Origin: a virus
Lineage: Duplodnaviria; Caudoviricetes
DNA length: 64,000 bases
IMG/VR virus record: IMGVR_UViG_3300046710_000146
Location: 49,863 to 113,862 of that record
Direction: 5' to 3' (one strand)
Shown here piece after piece: positions 3,639-18,389 of this stretch. Position numbers and translations under genes: made by a program. Positions within the stretch are counted from its first letter, which is position 1. Every line of letters begins with the position of its first letter. A model generated the notes under the pieces. That model saw nothing but the letters and a program-made list of their open reading frames with translations, did not search any database and had not been told where the DNA came from.

Positions 3639-4430
3639 TCATTGGCGGCAGTTGTCAAAATGCCATCGCCTCATGTTCCCTGCTGTTCCGGTTTTTCCAC
3701 AATGTGGGCATGTAATCTTTGGCAAGCTTAGCCCCTGTTCACTGCGCTTCTGCCATGCTGCACGCTGACTCTCTTTATGTTTTTCAGACAGCGGTTTTCC
3801 AGTATGCAGTGCAACGAGCCGATCCCGTTGTTCTTGTGACAACGGGATCCCCTTGCGGCTTTCAGACATCTTCCTGATTGTCTCGGCTGATCGTGGTTTG
3901 CCAGTAAACGCAGCCCTTAGTTTTGCCCGGGTTTCATCTTTAACCGGGCGACCCATCATGCCAGCGGAAATCTTGGCACACGTTTCAGCAGATGGCAGTG
4001 CTTTATTCTTTTGACCTTTACTGAGATTTGCACGCTCTTGCTCTGATCGTGGGCGACCTTTCTGAGCAGCCCCGATTTTGGCACGGTGCTCCGAGGATTT
4101 TGGCCTGCCAGCGACGCAAAAAGCGATACCGCCGGCTGGGTCAATAAAATGGCGATTGAGACATAGTGGATCTAACCGGTGCCCCTTAATCAGTTGCTGT
4201 TCTTCCCAATAGCAGTCTAGTGTTTCTCCAGTCATAATGATTTGCCACTCAAATGCCTCGATCCCAAATGCGGAAATATTGCGCTTCATAATAGTGCTGG
4301 AGGACTGATAGTGATGTCTAAAATCTTGCTCAGGAGTTCGCTTCTTACGGATGTTAGCAGACCTGGACCCATAATAGAACTCGCCAGTTTGCTTGTTACG
4401 AATACAATATACATATGCCTGAAATGTCAT
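3639..4430 (-). mobile_element. free-standing GIY-YIG homing endonuclease with NUMOD3 repeats (Seg-like)
   Basis: AYVY...FYYGS N-terminus, repeated S.E.R.K.S...KG units, C-terminal CPHC; antisense to its neighbours; AGGAG RBS. Confidence 0.85.
4403..4408 (+). promoter_or_regulatory. TACAAT -10 element for the polymerase, lying inside the HEG coding region
   Basis: TACAAT-N6-ATG(4415); no SD sequence. Confidence 0.6.
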
Positions 4431-6133
4431 CAAATACTCCTAAAGATCAGAACTATTTAGCAAGTTCGTACATTAGTTCAACACACGATTGGGACTCCGA
4501 CAAGATTCTTGTTTGGGAGCGCCCAATTGGTGGGGGTGAACGACGCGTCGTAATGCACGATGCCCCACGGTACTTCTACGTGCCGGATGATGAGGGTGAG
4601 CATACCGCAATTGATGGGGTGAAGCTCAAGAAGTTCGTGTTCGATTCGAAAGATGAGTTCACGGCTGAAGCCCGGCGCCATCGCATCAAGTATGAAAGCG
4701 ATATCCAGCCCGAGGCCCGACTGCTGATGGAGGCGTACTACGGGCGCCCAACACCAGTCGTGAACTACGCGTTCCTCGACATCGAGGTTGATTACTCCTC
4801 GAAGATTGGTTGGAGCTCGCCAGAGAATCCGTACGCCCCGATAAACGCGATCACGATCTTCCAGTCATGGACAGGTAAGTACCTGACGTACGCGGTGCCA
4901 CCAAAAACCTGGAAGGGTGATGAGGCTACGCTGCAGCTTGAAGTCCAGCGACTCTGGAAAGAGCACAAGCTGGACTTTGTACCCGATGTCACGATCTGTA
5001 AGACTGAGCGTGATCTGCTGTTGTATATGCTCGGTGATATCGAGGATGCCGACATAATCAGCGGCTGGAACTCTGAGTTCTTCGACAACCCGTACATCAT
5101 CAAGCGACTTGAACGAGTCCTTGGTAAGAAGGGTCCAGGGCACATGTCATTCAAGGGGGCACGACCCCCTGCTGAACGAATCGTGAATCGATTTGGATCG
5201 CCCGCGATCACGTTCACTTTGTACGGTAGAACACACCTTGACTATCTTGATCTCTTCAAGAAGTTCACGTTTGAAGGGCGGGTCTCATACTCACTCGCGA
5301 ACATCGCGGCTGAGGAGCTTGACGTTCCGAAGCTCGACTATCCAGGTACGTTGGAGCAGCTGTACCATAACGACTTCGCACATTTCATCACGTATAACGC
5401 CCGCGACGTTGAGGTGCTTGTGCAGCTGGATATGAAGTTCAAGCTCATGCAGCTTGTGAACCAGATGGCACATGAGAACACCGTGCCGTTCATGGCAATT
5501 CTTGGCACCGTCCGATACGTTGAGACTGGGATGATTAATCGTGCGCACAACGCGCACAACTTGATCGTGTGCGACAAGAACATGTCGGGCGAGTTGAATG
5601 AGAAGGTTGAAGGCGCCGTGGTGATGACACCTCGTGCAGGTCTATGGGAATGGATTGGTTCAATCGATCTTACCTCGCTGTACCCAAGCACCGCCCGCGC
5701 CCTGAACATGTCGATTGAAACCTTCGTTGGGCAGTTCGTTGATGAAGAGCGTGCATGGGAAGGTATCCGTGCCAGAGATGACAATCCATGGGAGGCCGTG
5801 ATCTCCCATGAGAGCATCACGGCTACTGGGGCTCAGTGGTTCGAGTACCTACGAGCCGAGAACTATGCAATCTCTGGGTTCGGCACGATCTTCGATCAGA
5901 ACAAACCTGGAATCGTTGCGGACACCCTGACATATTGGTTCAATGAGCGGCTTCGGCTACAGGCCAGTAAGAAAGCCGCGATTGCGGAGGTTAAGACGCT
6001 CAAGGCAACCTTGGGTATTCCCGCCCCCGCAGGGCTACTTATCAAGGAAATGGCTGATCATGATCCATCATCAAAATTAGACGAAGGACTGTCAATTTAT
6101 AACGACGACGATGGAATGCCAAATCAACTATGA
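4415..6133 (+). CDS. gp43A: family B DNA polymerase, N-terminal subunit (3'-5' exonuclease and motif A)
   Basis: ExoI DIE, ExoII GWNSEFFD, ExoIII YNARD, motif A DLTSLYPS. Confidence 0.93.
   Translation: MPEMSSNTPKDQNYLASSYISSTHDWDSDKILVWERPIGGGERRVVMHDAPRYFYVPDDEGEHTAIDGVKLKKFVFDSKDEFTAEARRHRIKYESDIQPEARLLMEAYYGRPTPVVNYAFLDIEVDYSSKIGWSSPENPYAPINAITIFQSWTGKYLTYAVPPKTWKGDEATLQLEVQRLWKEHKLDFVPDVTICKTERDLLLYMLGDIEDADIISGWNSEFFDNPYIIKRLERVLGKKGPGHMSFKGARPPAERIVNRFGSPAITFTLYGRTHLDYLDLFKKFTFEGRVSYSLANIAAEELDVPKLDYPGTLEQLYHNDFAHFITYNARDVEVLVQLDMKFKLMQLVNQMAHENTVPFMAILGTVRYVETGMINRAHNAHNLIVCDKNMSGELNEKVEGAVVMTPRAGLWEWIGSIDLTSLYPSTARALNMSIETFVGQFVDEERAWEGIRARDDNPWEAVISHESITATGAQWFEYLRAENYAISGFGTIFDQNKPGIVADTLTYWFNERLRLQASKKAAIAEVKTLKATLGIPAPAGLLIKEMADHDPSSKLDEGLSIYNDDDGMPNQL
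4454..4459 (-). promoter_or_regulatory. late promoter TAAATA for the HEG, lying inside polymerase codons 14-15
   Basis: TAAATA ... AGGAG(4441-4437) ... ATG(4430) on the minus strand. Confidence 0.6.
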
Positions 6134-7494
6134 ACCTCGCACAAATTAAGAAGCAGTTGAAATCCGGAGATCTGATTCTGGACGGGGGGAAACTGTACAC
6201 AAAAGAAGAGTGGGAGCAGATCAAAGCAAAGCAAGCTGAAGCAGATCACTACGATTTGCTTCAGCTCACGAAGAAGATTCAGCTGAACTCGGCATATGGT
6301 GCGCTCTTGAATGAAGCCTTCCGTTTCGGTCGTCGCGAAATCGGTGCGTCAATTACTGGCACTGGTCGCCAGATCACGAAGCACATGGGGCAGACGATTG
6401 GGACCCTTGCAACTGGGAACAAATGCACGTTCGAGAAGCGCTATGGTGACTTCAAGAACAAGAGCACACGCGCTGGGTCGTTTGAATCAGGCGAGCTGTA
6501 CGGTGAGTGGCTCCAAGCTGAGAACTTCGAAGCGCTCCGTAATCTGCCGCAAGAGCAGCAATGGACACGGAAGTTCAGCAAGGAAAAGAACGCCGAGGTT
6601 GATGTCGGTTCCGGTGCAATATGGTTCACAGAGTGCCCAGCAATCATCTATGGTGATACTGACTCGTGCTACTTCTTAACGTACGGAACAGACTACGACG
6701 AGGCGGTTGCGCTAGCTGATGAGATTGCAACGCAAACGAACGCGACATTCCCAGCGTTTATGCAAGAGGCATTCAACTGTACAGGCGGTCGAGAGCTGTT
6801 GATCAAAGGCGCTCGTGAAGTCGTAGCTGAGCGTGGACTGTTCATGCACATTAAGAAGAAGTACACGTTGCGTGTTGTCAATCTCGATGGGTATGATCTG
6901 CGGTCAAAGCCGAAGTTGAAGTCCATGGGATCTGAGATCAAGAAAGCTGACACGCCAAAGGTGGTGCAGGACTTCTTGAAGGATCTGATGGACCTGGTAC
7001 TCACCGGTAAACCGTACGCCGCAATGGAGGAGTTCATAAATGCACATCGTGGATCGTTGATCGGCGACGCGAAGGATGTGCTTGAGCTTGCAACCGCGAA
7101 GCAGGTGAACAACTTGGACGCGCTGTACGCTGAGTACAAGCGCACCGAGAAGATCAATAATGGAAAGATGAAGCACTGCCCAGGTCACGTTCGTTCCGCG
7201 ATAAACTTCAACGAGATGCTTGAGCTCTTCGATGCAGGTGGAATGCAACCGCTGAAGGCGGGTGACAAAGCCGCGATTCTGTACTTGAAGGACAACGCAT
7301 ACAGGATCAACTCAATTGGGTTTCCACCTGACATGCAGCACCTCCCTGACTGGTTCGTCGAGAACTTCGCGGTCGATCTACGAAAGACCGAAGAGAAGAT
7401 GATCGATAGCAAGGTTTCAGGGATCTTCAAGGCCCTTGGATATGAGACCCCAACCCTGCAGATGGCGCACCTGAAAAGCTCCTTCACATTCTGA
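6130..7494 (+). CDS. gp43B: family B DNA polymerase, C-terminal subunit (motifs B and C, thumb)
   Basis: KIQLNSAYG, YGDTDS, KKKY motifs. Confidence 0.93.
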   Translation: MNLAQIKKQLKSGDLILDGGKLYTKEEWEQIKAKQAEADHYDLLQLTKKIQLNSAYGALLNEAFRFGRREIGASITGTGRQITKHMGQTIGTLATGNKCTFEKRYGDFKNKSTRAGSFESGELYGEWLQAENFEALRNLPQEQQWTRKFSKEKNAEVDVGSGAIWFTECPAIIYGDTDSCYFLTYGTDYDEAVALADEIATQTNATFPAFMQEAFNCTGGRELLIKGAREVVAERGLFMHIKKKYTLRVVNLDGYDLRSKPKLKSMGSEIKKADTPKVVQDFLKDLMDLVLTGKPYAAMEEFINAHRGSLIGDAKDVLELATAKQVNNLDALYAEYKRTEKINNGKMKHCPGHVRSAINFNEMLELFDAGGMQPLKAGDKAAILYLKDNAYRINSIGFPPDMQHLPDWFVENFAVDLRKTEEKMIDSKVSGIFKALGYETPTLQMAHLKSSFTF

Positions 7495-9247: not shown

Positions 9248-10264
9248 ATGAAACGAATGGTATGTGACGTCTCAAATTTATTTTGGAGATCAGTGAGCGC
9301 TCAACAGCGGTACGGCCCGGCTGATGCGACTGATTCAGCTGGTCTCGGGCTGCATATGAGCTTGATGTCGCTGCGCAAGCACTGGAACAACATCAAGCCA
9401 GACAAGCTCGCGATTGTGTTCGAAGGAAAGCAGAACTGGCGGAAAGAATACACCCGCTCTGATCAGTGCTATTCTCAGCGGCTGTACAAGGGAAACCGTG
9501 TTGCTGATCCAAGCATGGCTGTTCTGTTTGAGGTCATGAAGGCCTTTGAAGATCTTGCACGGCAGCATACGAACATCGTGACACTCGTGCACCCACGTCT
9601 TGAAGGCGATGATTTGATCGGTGGCTATGCGCATCATTTTGCTCAGCAGGGCGATGAGGTTGCAATCTTGTCTGGTGACAAGGACTTCGTGCAGTTCCTT
9701 GGTAACCCGCTGATCTCGCTGATCAACCCAGATGATGGCAAACCGCGGACCTTGTTGGATGTCTGTGGGGTTGATGATGCTGGGTACTTCATGTTTGAGA
9801 AGTGTTTCCGTGGCGACGCAGGCGACAACGTTCTCCCTGGGTTGCCGCGCGTTCGCAAGACCAAGCTGCAGAAGGCGTACGGCATAAATGGGGTGCCGGC
9901 CGATGACTTCGAGATGACGAACCTGATGAATAGCTCATGGGAGTTCATCCACCCCGAGTCAGGCGATAAGCGCATGATGTCTGTCGAGAAGATGTACGTG
10001 GAGAATGATCTGTTGATGAACCTCCGTGGGCAGCCACCTGAGATTCAGGCACTGATCACCCAGGTCATCGAGCATGAAAGTGAGAACCATGGGAAGTTCG
10101 ACTTCTTCCAGTTCCAGAAGTTCCTTGGCACATACAAGCTTCAACAGATCGCTGAGCGCTCGACGGACTTTGTGCCGATGTTCAGCGGGAAGTCACCATC
10201 AACGGTTCCAGCAAATTCAAAGGTCAAACAGCTCGCTGAGCGGCTTGGAGGGCTATCATTTTGA
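9248..10264 (+). CDS. rnh: T4 RNase H-like 5'-3' exonuclease (FEN family)
   Basis: D.SN, WRK..Y...YKGNR, EGDD, SGDKDF.Q, GD.GDN motifs. Confidence 0.9.
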   Translation: MKRMVCDVSNLFWRSVSAQQRYGPADATDSAGLGLHMSLMSLRKHWNNIKPDKLAIVFEGKQNWRKEYTRSDQCYSQRLYKGNRVADPSMAVLFEVMKAFEDLARQHTNIVTLVHPRLEGDDLIGGYAHHFAQQGDEVAILSGDKDFVQFLGNPLISLINPDDGKPRTLLDVCGVDDAGYFMFEKCFRGDAGDNVLPGLPRVRKTKLQKAYGINGVPADDFEMTNLMNSSWEFIHPESGDKRMMSVEKMYVENDLLMNLRGQPPEIQALITQVIEHESENHGKFDFFQFQKFLGTYKLQQIAERSTDFVPMFSGKSPSTVPANSKVKQLAERLGGLSF

Positions 10265-10497
10265 TTAAGATCTATCACATCTTTGATGAGGGTGGTGACG
10301 ATGAAGGTGAGATCGAGGGGATGTTCAACAAAGACGGTGAACTCCTCGGCGGTTGGTGCTTGAATGACGGGAACTGGCGTGGCGAGTACATGAATGGGTT
10401 CTTGGCTGCACTCGGCATTGAAGTCGTTGACGACAGCGGTCGGAACACGAAGAAGCGAAAAGACATGGTCAAGAAACTGCGTGAGCAACTGGTATGA
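10261..10497 (+). CDS. hypothetical protein
   Basis: TTGA overlap, GGAGG upstream. Confidence 0.65.
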   Translation: MIKIYHIFDEGGDDEGEIEGMFNKDGELLGGWCLNDGNWRGEYMNGFLAALGIEVVDDSGRNTKKRKDMVKKLREQLV

Positions 10498-10814
10498 ATA
10501 TAACGGACCCTAACACTCCAGGTACCCCGTCTTCTCGGTTCACTCATCTCTTAGGTGAGCTTGATAAGCGGTTCCCAGACAAAAGACCGTTCTCGGCCGA
10601 TCCCGCCGAGGGTCGATACCTAAACGAGATCGATCGTATAATTGCTAAGACTGCCGATAAGCTCGTGCATCAGGTGAAGCTTGATGACTGGGCGCATGTT
10701 GTGCGGGTGATGAAGGAATACAAGAAGAAGGTCCATGCTCGGTACTACCTGCATGTGTCCGAGCTAAAAGAAGGATATCGTGTGAAGATCTTCAAGCGAG
10801 CTGCATATGATTGA
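10494..10814 (+). CDS. hypothetical protein
   Basis: ATGA overlap. Confidence 0.7.
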   Translation: MNITDPNTPGTPSSRFTHLLGELDKRFPDKRPFSADPAEGRYLNEIDRIIAKTADKLVHQVKLDDWAHVVRVMKEYKKKVHARYYLHVSELKEGYRVKIFKRAAYD

Positions 10815-11349
10815 TTACGCCCGGCTTGGGCGATCAGTCGAGCACTACGAGAAGGTTGGGTACACTCACGTTGAGGTGCCTTGGACCGTCACCCAAGCGG
10901 TGTCGAATATCACGAAGCCGCCAGGTGCTGGCGAGTACTTGATAAACAGCAAGAATAAAGTGCTTGTTGCCTCGGGTGAGCAAGGATTTCTGTACCTCGC
11001 CCTAAAGGGGTTCTTGCCACCTGGGAAATTCCAAGCGATTACGCCGTGTTTTCGTGATGAGCCATTCGATGTCTCGCACACGAAGTACTTCATGAAGAAC
11101 GAGCTGATCATCACCGATGATCCGTCTATCGAGATGGTCAAGAAGATCATAGGCGATGCGTTGGAGTACTTCCATACTGAGCACCCAACGGGGGTGCTGC
11201 GCGTAGTTGAAACCGCGGTGGGGTGCGACATCGAGCTGAATGGCATTGAGCTCGGTTCATATGGGTTACGAAAGACGAGCTTCCTGACCTGGGTGTACGG
11301 CACTGGGCTGGCTGAACCCCGATTTACAATGGCGAAGAACGCAGCATGA
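10807..11349 (+). CDS. stand-alone class II aminoacyl-tRNA synthetase-like catalytic domain
   Basis: Motif 1 GYTHVEVPW, motif 2 CFRDE...YFMKNEL, motif 3 YGTGLAEPRF; 180 aa, no anticodon-binding domain. Confidence 0.75.
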   Translation: MIDYARLGRSVEHYEKVGYTHVEVPWTVTQAVSNITKPPGAGEYLINSKNKVLVASGEQGFLYLALKGFLPPGKFQAITPCFRDEPFDVSHTKYFMKNELIITDDPSIEMVKKIIGDALEYFHTEHPTGVLRVVETAVGCDIELNGIELGSYGLRKTSFLTWVYGTGLAEPRFTMAKNAA

Positions 11350-11528
11350 TTGAAAAAACTAAACTAGAACCCTGCCAAGGGACATGTGAAAAGCACGTCG
11401 GAGAAGTATCCGAAGTCGCTGTTTCAGGGTGGGGGACATTCTTCTACTGCGAAGAGGCTATTGCAGAAGATAAACGTCGTGGGCTTACCGTTTACAAGGT
11501 GCAGAAAAGAGAAGCGCAACATGATTGA
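11346..11528 (+). CDS. small Cys-containing hypothetical protein
   Basis: ATGA overlap; overlaps the next start. Confidence 0.6.
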   Translation: MIEKTKLEPCQGTCEKHVGEVSEVAVSGWGTFFYCEEAIAEDKRRGLTVYKVQKREAQHD

Positions 11529-12129
11529 GCTAACAGACGCGGCTGAGCGGTTCTATAATATGAACCCCCGTGAATATCACAATTACGATCATCACGCCAA
11601 TGATGTAGTCAGACAAATTTTTACACTCTGTGAAAAGCCGTCGAATGCACTTGTTCTTGCTGGCGTGTGGCACGACGCCATTTATTTTCCTGGCGCTGAT
11701 CAAGTTCAGAAGGCGCTGAATGAACACGCCTCGGCAGCGGCGTTGTTCAGCACGCACAAGACCTTGCGGTCTAAGGTGAAGCAAGCGGATGTGGATCAAG
11801 CGATGGTGCTTATCATTGGGACCTGCATCGATGAGCACCTATCAGCGCTGCCAAAATCAGGTGATCAAGCGATCTTGATGGACGCGGATCTTGGTGGGTT
11901 GGCGGCGCCGTGGCTGCAGTTCATTGATAGTCAGGAAAAGATCATCCGTGAGAACAATGCCGAGGTGAATGAGACCTCGCTGCGTGCATGCTCCACATTC
12001 TTAACTCGGTTGCTGAACTGCCGTCCACATCTGTATCACACTGATCTGGCTCGAGAGCTTTATGAAGTCAGGGCCAAAGCGAACATCATTGCATTTGAGG
12101 TGCTACATAATGAGCTACCATCTAGCTGA
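11521..12129 (+). CDS. HD-superfamily phosphohydrolase
   Basis: YHN..H, WHDAIY, NE..SA, DADL motifs. Confidence 0.8.
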   Translation: MIELTDAAERFYNMNPREYHNYDHHANDVVRQIFTLCEKPSNALVLAGVWHDAIYFPGADQVQKALNEHASAAALFSTHKTLRSKVKQADVDQAMVLIIGTCIDEHLSALPKSGDQAILMDADLGGLAAPWLQFIDSQEKIIRENNAEVNETSLRACSTFLTRLLNCRPHLYHTDLARELYEVRAKANIIAFEVLHNELPSS

Positions 12130-12352
12130 AATTGAACGGGGTGTATTCGGCGAGTTCTCCAAGATCGAGGAGGAGTTCCTCGAGGCGAAGGATGCCCTAG
12201 CACAGGAGAACCCGGTGATGGTTCTTCAAGAGCTGAGCGACATGCTTGGCGCCATTGAGGCGTACACTGCCAGATACAACATCACGCTGATTGATTTGAT
12301 CATCATGAAGGACGCCACGAAGCGTGCATTTGAGAGCGGACATCGGTCATGA
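12110..12352 (+). CDS. MazG-like all-alpha NTP pyrophosphohydrolase
   Basis: KIEEEFLE..DA ... ELSD (ExxE...ExxD); GAGG RBS. Confidence 0.7.
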   Translation: MSYHLAEIERGVFGEFSKIEEEFLEAKDALAQENPVMVLQELSDMLGAIEAYTARYNITLIDLIIMKDATKRAFESGHRS

Positions 12353-12609
12353 GTAACTTCGTTCAAGAGCTGCCAGTTGATCCGGAAGAAGGGTGCTTGG
12401 TCTGGCTGTCGCTCGGCAAAGAGGGATTTTGGTCTGAGCAGCTTTTCAAAGATGGCAGGTGGTGTGAAGTTGGAGGTATGGCCGTGCCATATATTCCATC
12501 AGAGTTTAAGAAGCTAATTCCATTGCTCCGTGTGGCATCAGAGCGCTCAATGACTCTTGAGAAACTTGGGATGTTTCCAATGGGTAGCCCCGAGGTAAAA
12601 AGCTCCTAG
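12349..12609 (+). CDS. hypothetical protein
   Basis: ATGA overlap. Confidence 0.65.
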   Translation: MSNFVQELPVDPEEGCLVWLSLGKEGFWSEQLFKDGRWCEVGGMAVPYIPSEFKKLIPLLRVASERSMTLEKLGMFPMGSPEVKSS

Positions 12610-15727: not shown

Positions 15728-15859
15728 ATGGGCTATGAACGTAAGAACAGTGACGATGATGAAGCGAACGGGCAGTTCAGCTGGTTTGGGGCGTGCTCGA
15801 TCCTCGTCATCTGCCTCAGTCCGCTAATACTTTTGGTGATACTCCAACTGAAGACATAA
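15728..15859 (+). CDS. small membrane protein
   Basis: Hydrophobic C-terminal helix, TAATG coupling to primase. Confidence 0.5.
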   Translation: MGYERKNSDDDEANGQFSWFGACSILVICLSPLILLVILQLKT

Positions 15860-16884
15860 TGCAACAGAAGCTTCTTCGTGACTTAATCGAGTCGAACATT
15901 CACCTGGGTCAAGAATCCAGCACGGGATTTCGAGGGCTGCGATGCGCGGTCTGCAATGATCACTCTGAACGTGCTGGGTTTAAGTTCGACGGTGACATGG
16001 TGATCTACAACTGCTTCAACTGCCATACGAAGTCGTTGTACGAGGAGCGCACGACCGACATGTCGGTCTCGATGAAACGGGTCCTTGAGGCATTCGGAAT
16101 CTCACGAGAGAAGATCAACGAGGTCGTTGGTTCCGCGTTCTTTGTGCAGAGCCAAGAACCAAAGGAGATTACCTCAGCTTCAATGAAGCCACAGGTTCGG
16201 CTGTTCACCCCCGAGGTTCCGCTTCCACCGAAATCATATCCAATTGGCGCCCCGCATAATGAGGACCTTCAGCTTCCGCTCGCCGAGTACATCGTTCACC
16301 GAGGGTTGGATCCAGAAAAACTGAATGCGCACTTCAGTCTTGACACTCGGTTTCTCAATCGCGTGATCCTCCCGTGCATGCGTGATGGGAAGGTCATCTA
16401 TTGGCAGGCGCGTACGCTTGGGAACACCAAACCGCGGTACCTATCGCCAGGCACGAACAAAGATGCGGTGATGTGGGGGTACGATAATCTTCGTATGAAC
16501 TACGATGCGCCGCTGTTTATCACCGAGGGAATCTTCGATGCTGCATCATGTGATGGTGTTGCACTGCTTGGGTCGGAGATCAATGAGTCAAAGCTGCAGA
16601 TTCTAAATCGGTCGCGGCGAAGACGAGCGGTCGTGATCGACCGTGATGACAATGGTGGGCGGCTTGCCCAACTCGCACTGAGCCATGGCTGGGAGATCAC
16701 GTTCCCGCCAACAGGTGCGAGCGATGTAAATGACAGCGTGCAGAAGTTCGGAAAGCTGTTCACGATCTGGACCCTACTTCAGAACATGACGGTCCCAACA
16801 GGACTGAGAACAGCTGAAGGTACCACGTTACAATCACAACTACAGCTTGGTGTGCAGATGGCACTGGCAAAGATGAGGAGATAA
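15859..16884 (+). CDS. gp61: DNA primase (gp61-like)
   Basis: Zn ribbon CxxC...CFNC, TOPRIM EGIFD and DRD motifs. Confidence 0.9.
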   Translation: MQQKLLRDLIESNIHLGQESSTGFRGLRCAVCNDHSERAGFKFDGDMVIYNCFNCHTKSLYEERTTDMSVSMKRVLEAFGISREKINEVVGSAFFVQSQEPKEITSASMKPQVRLFTPEVPLPPKSYPIGAPHNEDLQLPLAEYIVHRGLDPEKLNAHFSLDTRFLNRVILPCMRDGKVIYWQARTLGNTKPRYLSPGTNKDAVMWGYDNLRMNYDAPLFITEGIFDAASCDGVALLGSEINESKLQILNRSRRRRAVVIDRDDNGGRLAQLALSHGWEITFPPTGASDVNDSVQKFGKLFTIWTLLQNMTVPTGLRTAEGTTLQSQLQLGVQMALAKMRR

Positions 16885-16885
16885 G

Positions 16886-17053
16886 ATGGCAGAATTTGGA
16901 ATAACACTTGGGTTTGTGATCACCGCAGATTCATATGAGGGCGCGGGTGAGATTGCCGCAAAGATACGAGATGACGCTGTTAAGGCAGGTGATGCTAACT
17001 TCGGGAACATTGCCGAAGTAGAGCTCATTTCAGGCGAGGTGTCTGATGAGTGA
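16886..17053 (+). CDS. small hypothetical protein (55 aa)
   Basis: GAGGAG RBS; fills the primase-helicase gap. Confidence 0.6.
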   Translation: MAEFGITLGFVITADSYEGAGEIAAKIRDDAVKAGDANFGNIAEVELISGEVSDE

Positions 17054-18389
17054 GTTCATGGTCGATGATGCCGCACAACGGCTATACATAAACGCAATGT
17101 TGGGGAACCCATCGCTGTTTGCACGTGTTCAACATCTGGTGCAGCCATCATACTTTGACGGTGGTCTCCAAGGGGGCGTGCAGTTCATGAAGGAGTTCTA
17201 CTACAAGCACCGCGGGGTGCCATCACCTCAGGTGTTTGCAGCCGGTACGAAGCTCAAGGTCGATGCACAGGAGCTCCCATTGCAGGATCTTGCTTTCGTA
17301 GCTGAACAGATCGCTGGGTTCTGTCAGATTCGAGCGGTCACTGAGGCCGTGCTGAAGGCACCAGCCTTGATGGAGAAGGGTGACTTCGGCAAGATGGTCG
17401 AGCAGATCAAGCTTGCATCACAGGTTCAGCTGCACTCTGATCTCGGCATCGAGTACTTCTTGGATCCCGTTGCACGCCTTGAAGAGAGTGAAGCACTTGA
17501 GGTGTTGATCCCGTTGGGATGGAGCTCAGTTGACGATATGATCGGTGGTGGTGTTGGCCGACAAGAGCTCGTGCTGATCACCGCGAATTCTGGTGGCGGT
17601 AAATCCGTCGTGATGTTGAACATTGGCTTTAACCTCTTAAAACGTGGGTTGAATGGCGTGTACATCACATTGGAGATGCGTGATCGTGTCGTGGCAAAGC
17701 GCCTTGACTCAATGATCAGCCGAATCTCGGGCAAGAACATCTTCATGAACAAGCTTAAGGTAGGCCAAGAGGTTGAGCTGTTCAAGGAGCAGGAGGCCGG
17801 TCGGTTGTTCATCAAGCGTATGCGCGAAGGCTCCACCACGGCAGATCATATCGCCTCATACCTTCGTGAACTAGAGGCCGTGCACGGCTTCCGGCCAGAC
17901 TTTGTGATCGTTGACTACATCGACCTGATGTCGTCAATCCAAAAGCATGATGGTTCGAACATGTTCACCAAGGACAAGTTCGTGACTGAAGAGGTCCGTG
18001 CAATCGGCTTTGACTTCGACTGTCTGATGATCAGCGCATCACAACTTGGGCGCGGCGCCATTGAAGCAACCCGTGAGCAGAAGTCATTGGATCAAGCGCA
18101 CATCCAGGGCGGCATCTCAAAGATCAACACCTCCGATCTCGTGATCGCGGTCGTGAAGGATGAGGCGATGGATGCCGCTGGTGAATATCGATTCGAGTTC
18201 CTAAAAGCTCGAAATTCAAATGCCGTGAATAAAAAGGTCACCATGGCATGGGATGCTGACAGTCTACGGGTCACGGACCTGGGGCTAAAACTTGTGACCG
18301 CGCCGCATCGTCGACCAGGGCTAACCCTTCCAGACACTAAACCTGGCAAGGGTGGAGATGGCCTGGCCGATTTGCTGGGACGAAAGTGA
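17046..18389 (+). CDS. gp41: DnaB-like replicative helicase (gp41-like)
   Basis: Walker A ANSGGGKS, TLEM, VDYIDLM, SASQ, KAR motifs. Confidence 0.93.
   Translation: MSEFMVDDAAQRLYINAMLGNPSLFARVQHLVQPSYFDGGLQGGVQFMKEFYYKHRGVPSPQVFAAGTKLKVDAQELPLQDLAFVAEQIAGFCQIRAVTEAVLKAPALMEKGDFGKMVEQIKLASQVQLHSDLGIEYFLDPVARLEESEALEVLIPLGWSSVDDMIGGGVGRQELVLITANSGGGKSVVMLNIGFNLLKRGLNGVYITLEMRDRVVAKRLDSMISRISGKNIFMNKLKVGQEVELFKEQEAGRLFIKRMREGSTTADHIASYLRELEAVHGFRPDFVIVDYIDLMSSIQKHDGSNMFTKDKFVTEEVRAIGFDFDCLMISASQLGRGAIEATREQKSLDQAHIQGGISKINTSDLVIAVVKDEAMDAAGEYRFEFLKARNSNAVNKKVTMAWDADSLRVTDLGLKLVTAPHRRPGLTLPDTKPGKGGDGLADLLGRK

Follow-up and report, generated by a model that had tools for sequence, protein, structure and literature searches.

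We analyzed a 64,000-nucleotide (nt) stretch of viral DNA, hereafter called the window, which corresponds to bases 49863-113862 of the 113.9-kb IMG/VR virus record IMGVR_UViG_3300046710_000146. Because CheckV puts the completeness of this record at 32%, the window is a fragment of a jumbo phage. Its replication block contains four overlapping genes on the + strand, at 10807-12352, the outer two of which form a conserved pair. This pair encodes a widespread two-component phage enzyme with no described function, composed of a minimal class II aminoacyl-tRNA synthetase (aaRS)-like core and a MazG/HisE-type pyrophosphatase. The four genes are as follows.

10807..11349, + strand: minimal class II aaRS-like catalytic core; 180 amino acids (aa), with motifs 1, 2, and 3; one half of the conserved pair.
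11346..11528, + strand: orphan Cys protein; 60 aa, with C10, C14, and C35; between the partner genes.
11521..12129, + strand: HD-superfamily metal-dependent phosphohydrolase; 202 aa; between the partner genes.
12110..12352, + strand: MazG/HisE-type all-alpha nucleoside triphosphate (NTP) pyrophosphohydrolase-like protein; 80 aa; the other half of the pair.

A previous inspection of the window, made from its letters and open reading frames (ORF) and hereafter called the sequence-only reading, had described these four overlapping genes and assigned three of their products to a class II aaRS core, an HD hydrolase, and a MazG-like pyrophosphatase. All four genes are indeed present. Three of them have family support, and the fold assignments are borne out by PHROG matches and by invariant motif residues. 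The junctions display overlaps of 4, 8, and 20 bp, in gene order, and the four genes are probably co-translated in this phage. For the Cys protein, the evidence consists of an open frame and of this coupling, i.e. the 4-bp and 8-bp overlaps with its neighbors. The start of the HD gene was placed at the ATG at 11521, which agrees with the N termini of HD homologues; a 247-aa ORF starting at the GTG at 11386 was rejected as an over-extension, because these N termini fit the ATG. The start of the MazG-like gene was set by the conserved N terminus of the family, M-G/S-Y-H. A megablast search of GenBank phages with the four-gene region returned no match.

The aaRS-like protein matches PHROG 4806 ("histidyl tRNA synthetase") with an E value of 1.2e-39. 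Its Pfam matches to the class II families tRNA-synt_2 (PF00152, 17 bits vs a cut-off of 25) and tRNA-synt_2d (PF01409, 15.7 bits vs 19.8) are sub-threshold; PF00152 is matched at E ≤ 1 by 41 of the 42 relatives that we compared, with a best E value of 1.7e-7. There are 41 invariant columns among these relatives, and class II motifs 1-3 are kept throughout, with P25 in motif 1, R83, H91, F95, and E99 in motif 2, and R172 in motif 3. Further Lys/Arg residues, beyond those needed for ATP binding, are also invariant (K51, K67, K93, K97, and R155). When the AlphaFold2 model of the protein, which has a predicted local distance difference test score (pLDDT) of 91.5, was compared with known structures (VIA), 178 of its 180 residues aligned with mitochondrial SerRS at a Z score of 19.1. 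HisZ/HisRS and PylRS aligned at Z scores of 17.8-18.1 and 16.5, respectively, and Foldseek retrieved PylRS and SerRS at an E value of 1e-9. According to the structure alignment, the whole protein corresponds to the core, with neither an anticodon-binding domain nor the coiled-coil arm of SerRS. Its motifs and predicted fold are those of a class II core that is minimal yet complete. We do not regard it as a canonical synthetase, since its tRNA-binding parts were looked for and found to be absent. A word-index search for longer relatives, between 316 and 2000 aa, found none. An exhaustive profile search yielded a few relatives of 259-320 aa, of which seven are fusions with a MazG-like part and the others have unexplained extensions.

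We then considered which class II synthetases the core resembles most. An hhalign comparison with Escherichia coli SerRS places S56-G-E58 on the TxE motif of SerRS, with a near-identical TPCFRxE, and the motifs also align with the active-site motifs of PheRS. The motif 2 loop is 5 residues long in the core vs ∼12 in SerRS, and this short loop with its D...H resembles that of PheRS-alpha and, presumably, that of PylRS. We tried to assign the core to the SerRS, HisRS, PylRS, or PheRS-alpha subclass and rejected each assignment: structure comparison points to SerRS, with HisZ/HisRS within 1 Z, Foldseek points to PylRS, and profile comparison ties PheRS-alpha with SerRS. Considering that these signals disagree, we claim no amino acid specificity for the core.

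The partner of the core, the 80-aa MazG-like protein, matches PHROG 6408 with an E value of 3e-26. It displays an EExxE...ExxD metal-site pattern in which E21, E22, E25, E41, and D44 are invariant in 48 relatives, as are Y3, H4, and K18. The best Pfam lead is PRA-PH (PF01503), which the window protein matches below the cut-off (14.7 bits vs 21.3) and which 45 of the 48 relatives match, with a best E value of 4.6e-5. The AlphaFold2 model consists of three helices (pLDDT of 93). In a Foldseek search with this model, eight of the 10 best matches were MazG or PRA-PH structures, with probabilities of 0.66-0.99 and weak E values (≥ 0.57), as expected for a protein of only 80 residues. Two variants of the gene stand out. 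At locus L027 (6539-6790), and in the same sequence from a second sample (L032), there is an in-frame TAA at the nearly invariant Gln32, which could be a CAA-to-TAA mutation, a sign of a pseudogene, or a case of stop-codon recoding in an AT-rich phage. At locus L058 (5306-5989), the MazG-like ORF runs on for ∼150 aa and ends just before the aaRS-like gene; this extension has a sub-threshold match to an RF-1 (peptidyl-tRNA hydrolase) domain (E value of 6.4e-5), apparently without the GGQ motif.

The sequence-only reading had suggested examining gene neighborhoods and fusions across phages. We compared 61 loci, made up of the neighborhood in the window itself, four loci from GenBank phages, and 56 from IMG/VR that contain an aaRS-like gene. 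As assessed by tblastn, a MazG-like gene is close to the aaRS-like gene in 60 of these loci, the exception being Acinetobacter phage Acj61. Other Acinetobacter T4-like phages keep the MazG-like gene ∼400 bp from the aaRS-like gene. As assessed by ORF clustering, the two genes share a strand; the core gene precedes the MazG-like gene in 51 loci and follows it in seven, and the gap between them is ≤ 13 bp, or they overlap, in 48/58 loci. The next commonest neighbor family is present in only 15 of the 61 loci. Among GenBank phages, the aaRS-like gene is found in 276 records and the MazG-like gene in 259, with similar genus counts, and in every record listed for both genes the two lie within ∼400 bp of each other and mostly abut. 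The exhaustive profile search resolved the aaRS-like family into 1587 clusters (50% identity). Among the 150 that scored best, seven are natural fusions of 259-268 aa, in which the core is followed by a MazG-like part matched with E values from 1e-25 to 2e-33. A complex prediction for the core and its MazG-like partner gave a score of 0.00, which has no weight either way. The neighborhood and fusion comparison therefore links the aaRS-like and MazG-like genes, and not the HD and Cys genes, which do not co-occur with them outside the lineage of the window. Very probably, the functional unit is a two-component phage-specific enzyme rather than a four-gene module.

The HD protein matches PHROG 19425 ("phosphohydrolase") with an E value of 2e-15. 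Six of its 14 relatives are named predicted metal-dependent HD superfamily phosphohydrolase by JGI, and H20, H51-D52, H106, D121, and D123 are invariant in all 14. The Pfam HD family (PF01966) does not match the window protein and matches three of the 14 relatives, weakly (best E value of 0.0026), and the match of the HD profile to the HD hydrolase in PDB entry 2pq7 is also weak (E value of 0.019). As for the Cys protein, we found no match in Pfam, PHROG, or NCBIfam and no relative in GenBank phages or IMG/VR, and its cluster has one member. An Atlas lead from this protein to a "PRA-CH" cluster was left unused as too weak, with a template modeling (TM) score of 0.56 over 38 residues and a model pLDDT of 0.58. 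In tblastn searches of the 60 other loci, neither the HD nor the Cys gene was found beside the pair, and, conversely, the pair was absent within 5 kb of the HD-family gene at all 19 other viral loci with such a gene. Other split pairs carry different, unrelated inserts at the same junction. Considering that the inserts differ among phages, the junction is a site that collects insertions, and the HD and Cys genes are lineage-specific insertions in the lineage of the window. Nevertheless, relatives of the core and of the HD protein, both with 83-90% identity, are recorded on Logan contigs of 11,874 and 52,062 nt. They probably reside on the same two contigs, and the arrangement of core plus HD is thus probably present in close kin. 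Among the other inserts, a ∼190-aa protein with no Pfam match recurs between the pair genes at loci L008 (6521-7126) and L025/L026 (6536-7102) and is shortened at L039 (6536-6748), whereas loci L012 and L054 have small Cys-containing proteins in this place.

More than a thousand phage lineages have the pair, among them Phapecoctavirus, Acinetobacter T4-like phages, phiCbK-like phages, and megaphages. The aaRS-like family is almost wholly viral, with Atlas clusters that are 91-100% viral and only two metagenome-assembled genome contigs with the family among 185,579 species genomes. At other loci, genes near the pair include RNR, Nampt, NMNAT-Nudix, ThyA, Prs, and FolD. NAD-salvage genes, namely Nampt and a cytidylyltransferase-like/NUDIX fusion that we read as NMNAT-Nudix, are found no farther than 6 kb from the pair in 8-9 loci (including L023, L035, L040, and L042). 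In megaphage LR745206 (L001), the ORFs beside the pair were read from their sequences as PRPP-synthetase-like and FolD. Members of the aaRS-like family are routinely annotated as "histidyl/seryl-tRNA synthetase", including those in the phage-therapy genera Phapecoctavirus and Acinetobacter Twarogvirinae, a name that is doubtful because the tRNA-binding parts are missing. In the literature, we found no functional study of the pair and no paper treating it as a unit, only annotation-level mentions. In phage RXM, for example, g118/g119 are listed as "MazG" and g121 as "SerRS" (PMC8953757).

The sequence-only reading had likened the four genes to the PurZ/DatZ/MazZ pathway, which shares the picture of MazG-type and HD-type hydrolases beside an ATP-using ligase in a phage replication block, while noting that no PurZ is present in the window. 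This absence now extends to the whole 113.9-kb record (itself 32% complete), where no PurZ match was found, and PurZ is also absent from all five complete genomes with the pair; positive controls were matched in both searches. In addition, the ligase fold is different, conservation of the pair does not extend to the HD gene, and neither the HD nor the MazG-like profile retrieved DatZ or MazZ structures, which argues against any specific similarity. The analogy was therefore abandoned. HisG was likewise absent from the five complete genomes, with positive controls, and because both PurZ and HisG are missing from them the pair is an analogue of neither the Z-genome nor the histidine pathway.

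When compared with other known systems, the core shares its fold over all 180 residues, and motifs 1-3, with the catalytic domain of SerRS (class IIa), PylRS, PheRS-alpha, and HisRS. It differs from canonical SerRS and other class II cores in being only 180 aa long with no coiled-coil arm or tRNA-binding domain, in being tied to a pyrophosphatase, and in being nearly all viral. The amino acid:[carrier protein] ligases, truncated SerRS homologues such as Bll0957 (PDB 3MEY), also have a SerRS-like core without the tRNA arm and hand the activated amino acid over to an acceptor other than tRNA, the gene for which is adjacent. Although the phage core aligns with them at a Z score of 14.8, these ligases are longer (∼290-320 aa) and work with a phosphopantetheinylated carrier protein instead of a MazG/HisE-like partner. 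In the 48 relatives of the MazG-like protein, there is no invariant Ser that could carry phosphopantetheine; S43 is replaced by Ala, Cys, or Thr in several of them and no other Ser is invariant. HisZ-HisG, together with HisE (PRA-PH), is similar in associating a class II paralogue that has no tRNA role with a PRA-PH-type all-alpha pyrophosphatase. HisZ is described as non-catalytic, whereas the phage core, which shares 9-13% sequence identity with it, retains the motif 2 and motif 3 catalytic residues and occurs without HisG (0/5). EpmA (GenX/PoxA) and AsnA are likewise stand-alone class II cores that ligate their substrates to non-tRNA acceptors, but they belong to class IIb, are ∼325-330 aa long, align with the phage core at Z scores of 12.7-12.9, and have no pyrophosphatase partner. 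By analogy, the core would work most like these truncated paralogues (amino acid:[carrier protein] ligases, EpmA, AsnA, and HisZ), and it differs from them in size, partner, and conserved residues.

What might the pair do? Our preferred reading, which we hold tentatively, is that it comprises an adenylate-forming ligase and a nucleotide pyrophosphatase acting on a non-tRNA, nucleotide-type substrate. In this scheme, the core, which has lost every tRNA-binding appendage, retains the residues that bind ATP and stabilize an acyl-adenylate (R83/H91/F95 in motif 2, R172 in motif 3, and S56-G-E58), and the partner would be an 80-aa MazG/HisE-type NTP pyrophosphohydrolase with its EExxE...ExxD metal site intact. 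Made together from abutting or overlapping genes, and as one polypeptide in some lineages, the two proteins would most likely catalyze consecutive steps on one substrate. The core may adenylate a carboxylate, probably a small amino acid, and transfer it to a non-tRNA nucleotide-type acceptor, which the pyrophosphatase may make or trim by converting an NTP-type substrate into a nucleoside monophosphate-type product and pyrophosphate. Besides the pairing, the fusions, and the conserved catalytic sites, this reading is favored by the surroundings of the pair, with replication genes in the window and genes of nucleotide metabolism at other loci. The suggestion of the sequence-only reading that the core is an aaRS paralogue with a role unrelated to tRNA thus survives as the best available reading, with the same reserve, in line with a core that has no tRNA-binding part. 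With a little more caution still, the pair may be a new type of phage enzyme in which the smallest natural class II core and a MazG/HisE pyrophosphatase together aminoacylate a nucleotide or make an aminoacyl- or dinucleotide product.

Several observations weigh against the ligase-pyrophosphatase reading. The fusion proteins are metagenome gene calls, known at the protein level. In Acj61 (L004, GU911519.1), the aaRS-like gene is present and no MazG-like gene was detected anywhere in 164 kb, so the core can exist alone. Judging from its sequence, the near-complete SerRS-like catalytic set would also suit a minimal tRNA-charging enzyme. Furthermore, 24 of the 61 loci have tRNA genes no more than 6 kb from the pair, always on the same strand, seven have an RNA ligase gene nearby, and in Caulobacter phage CcrBL9 (L002, 4739-5564) the pair is inside a tRNA array, between tRNA-Thr and tRNA-Glu. 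These last points favor a minimal tRNA-directed enzyme, in which the core would contact just the acceptor stem of a phage or host tRNA and aminoacylate, or otherwise act on, its 3' end, while the MazG-like partner would be an accessory subunit or clear an inhibitory nucleotide. The 15-65 tRNAs encoded by each of the five complete genomes with the pair, and the MazG-like ORF of L058 that continues into a weak RF-1-like domain, point the same way. We nevertheless consider such an enzyme, the foremost rival, unlikely. The core lacks any RNA-binding domain, be it a coiled-coil arm, an anticodon-binding domain, or another, its motif 2 loop is short, and both proteins of the pair are acidic, with median isoelectric points of 5.6 (aaRS-like) and 5.1 (MazG-like). 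Moreover, no tRNA gene was found in the 113.9-kb record holding the window, and background proximity to tRNA genes in tRNA-rich megaphages is already ∼15-25%, a rough estimate from tRNA coordinates. Nor does a tRNA-directed enzyme account for the choice of invariant partner, a pyrophosphatase whose metal site is intact.

Other explanations appear less probable. Class II synthetases are well-known to make Ap4A from aminoacyl-AMP and ATP, and the pair could accordingly be an alarmone or dinucleoside-polyphosphate enzyme, as the sequence-only reading had also envisaged, in which the acyl-adenylate would be attacked by an NTP bound to the MazG-like part to give an Ap4N-type product, or which would make and degrade signals that reprogram the host. 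The fusion of an NTP-binding fold to the core in seven clusters, the invariant K51, K67, K93, K97, and R155 in excess of the need for ATP binding, and the HD hydrolase inserted in the lineage of the window are compatible with this improbable scenario; on the other hand, it would be unusual for a synthetase to be fused to an enzyme that hydrolyzes its product, and a MazG metal site speaks for hydrolysis and not just for binding. We give slightly less credence to an EpmA-like protein-modifying ligase, in which the core would aminoacylate a protein of the host or the phage, with a separate but co-regulated role for its MazG-like partner. Truncated class II paralogues (EpmA/GenX) do modify proteins, and GenX aligns with the core at a Z score of 12.9, but the fold is nearer to SerRS, HisRS, and PylRS than to the IIb group, and such a ligase would not explain why the core is invariably paired, and at times fused, with a nucleotide pyrophosphatase. 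That the core is a non-catalytic, HisZ-like binder or regulator, or part of an anti-defense sponge or hydrolase in which it binds an aminoacyl-adenylate-like molecule (e.g. an amino acid-ADP-ribose immune signal) for the pyrophosphatase to cleave, is quite improbable. In its favor, HisZ and HisRS-like subunits rank high among the structural matches (Z scores of 17.8-18.1), the partner scores best against HisE/PRA-PH, and Nampt and NMNAT-Nudix genes are near in 8-9 loci. However, motifs 2 and 3 have kept their catalytic Arg residues without exception, conservation is high across very different phage groups, unlike in fast-evolving anti-defense genes, and all five complete genomes lack HisG. Finally, a four-gene nucleotide-modification module of ligase, Cys, HD, and MazG-like proteins akin to PurZ/DatZ/MazZ, which is what the sequence-only reading had put forward, now seems highly improbable. 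Although all four genes overlap and close relatives of the core and the HD protein probably share two Logan contigs, the HD and Cys genes are missing beside the pair at the 60 other loci, the 19 other viral HD loci are devoid of the pair, other phages have unrelated inserts at the junction, PurZ is absent from the record and the five complete genomes, and the HD and MazG-like profiles fail to retrieve DatZ and MazZ.

To our knowledge, the 180-aa core is smaller than any characterized natural class II paralogue, HisZ, PylSc, amino acid:[carrier protein] ligases, AsnA, and EpmA being ∼270-330 aa. With a full set of catalytic motifs in 180 aa, it offers a natural test case for the discussion of minimal or ancestral synthetase cores ("urzymes"). 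That a nucleotide pyrophosphatase is its obligatory partner, and is fused to it in some lineages, points to a reaction of phage nucleotide or tRNA metabolism that has yet to be described, and conservation of the pair extends from coliphages to 600-kb megaphages. If the pair is indeed a new type of enzyme, aminoacylation of a nucleotide or synthesis of an aminoacyl- or dinucleotide product would represent a chemistry not described for phages. Since tractable E. coli phages carry the pair, its function is directly testable.

The genes surrounding the four-gene region in the window are as follows.

4415-6133 and 6130-7494, + strand: DNA polymerase in two overlapping ORFs; replication block.
9248-10264, + strand: 5'-3' exonuclease; replication block.
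10494-10814, + strand: flanking ORF; 106 aa, overlapping the aaRS-like gene by 8 bp.
12349-12609, + strand: flanking ORF; 86 aa, overlapping the MazG-like gene by 4 bp.
15793-16884, + strand: primase; replication block.
17046-18389, + strand: DnaB-like helicase; replication block.

The two flanking ORFs have no family match in Pfam or PHROG and no relatives at the 60 other loci. Of the two polymerase ORFs, which overlap by 4 bp, the first matches the N-terminal half of PHROG 262 and the second its C-terminal half; they could represent either a split polymerase or a frameshift.

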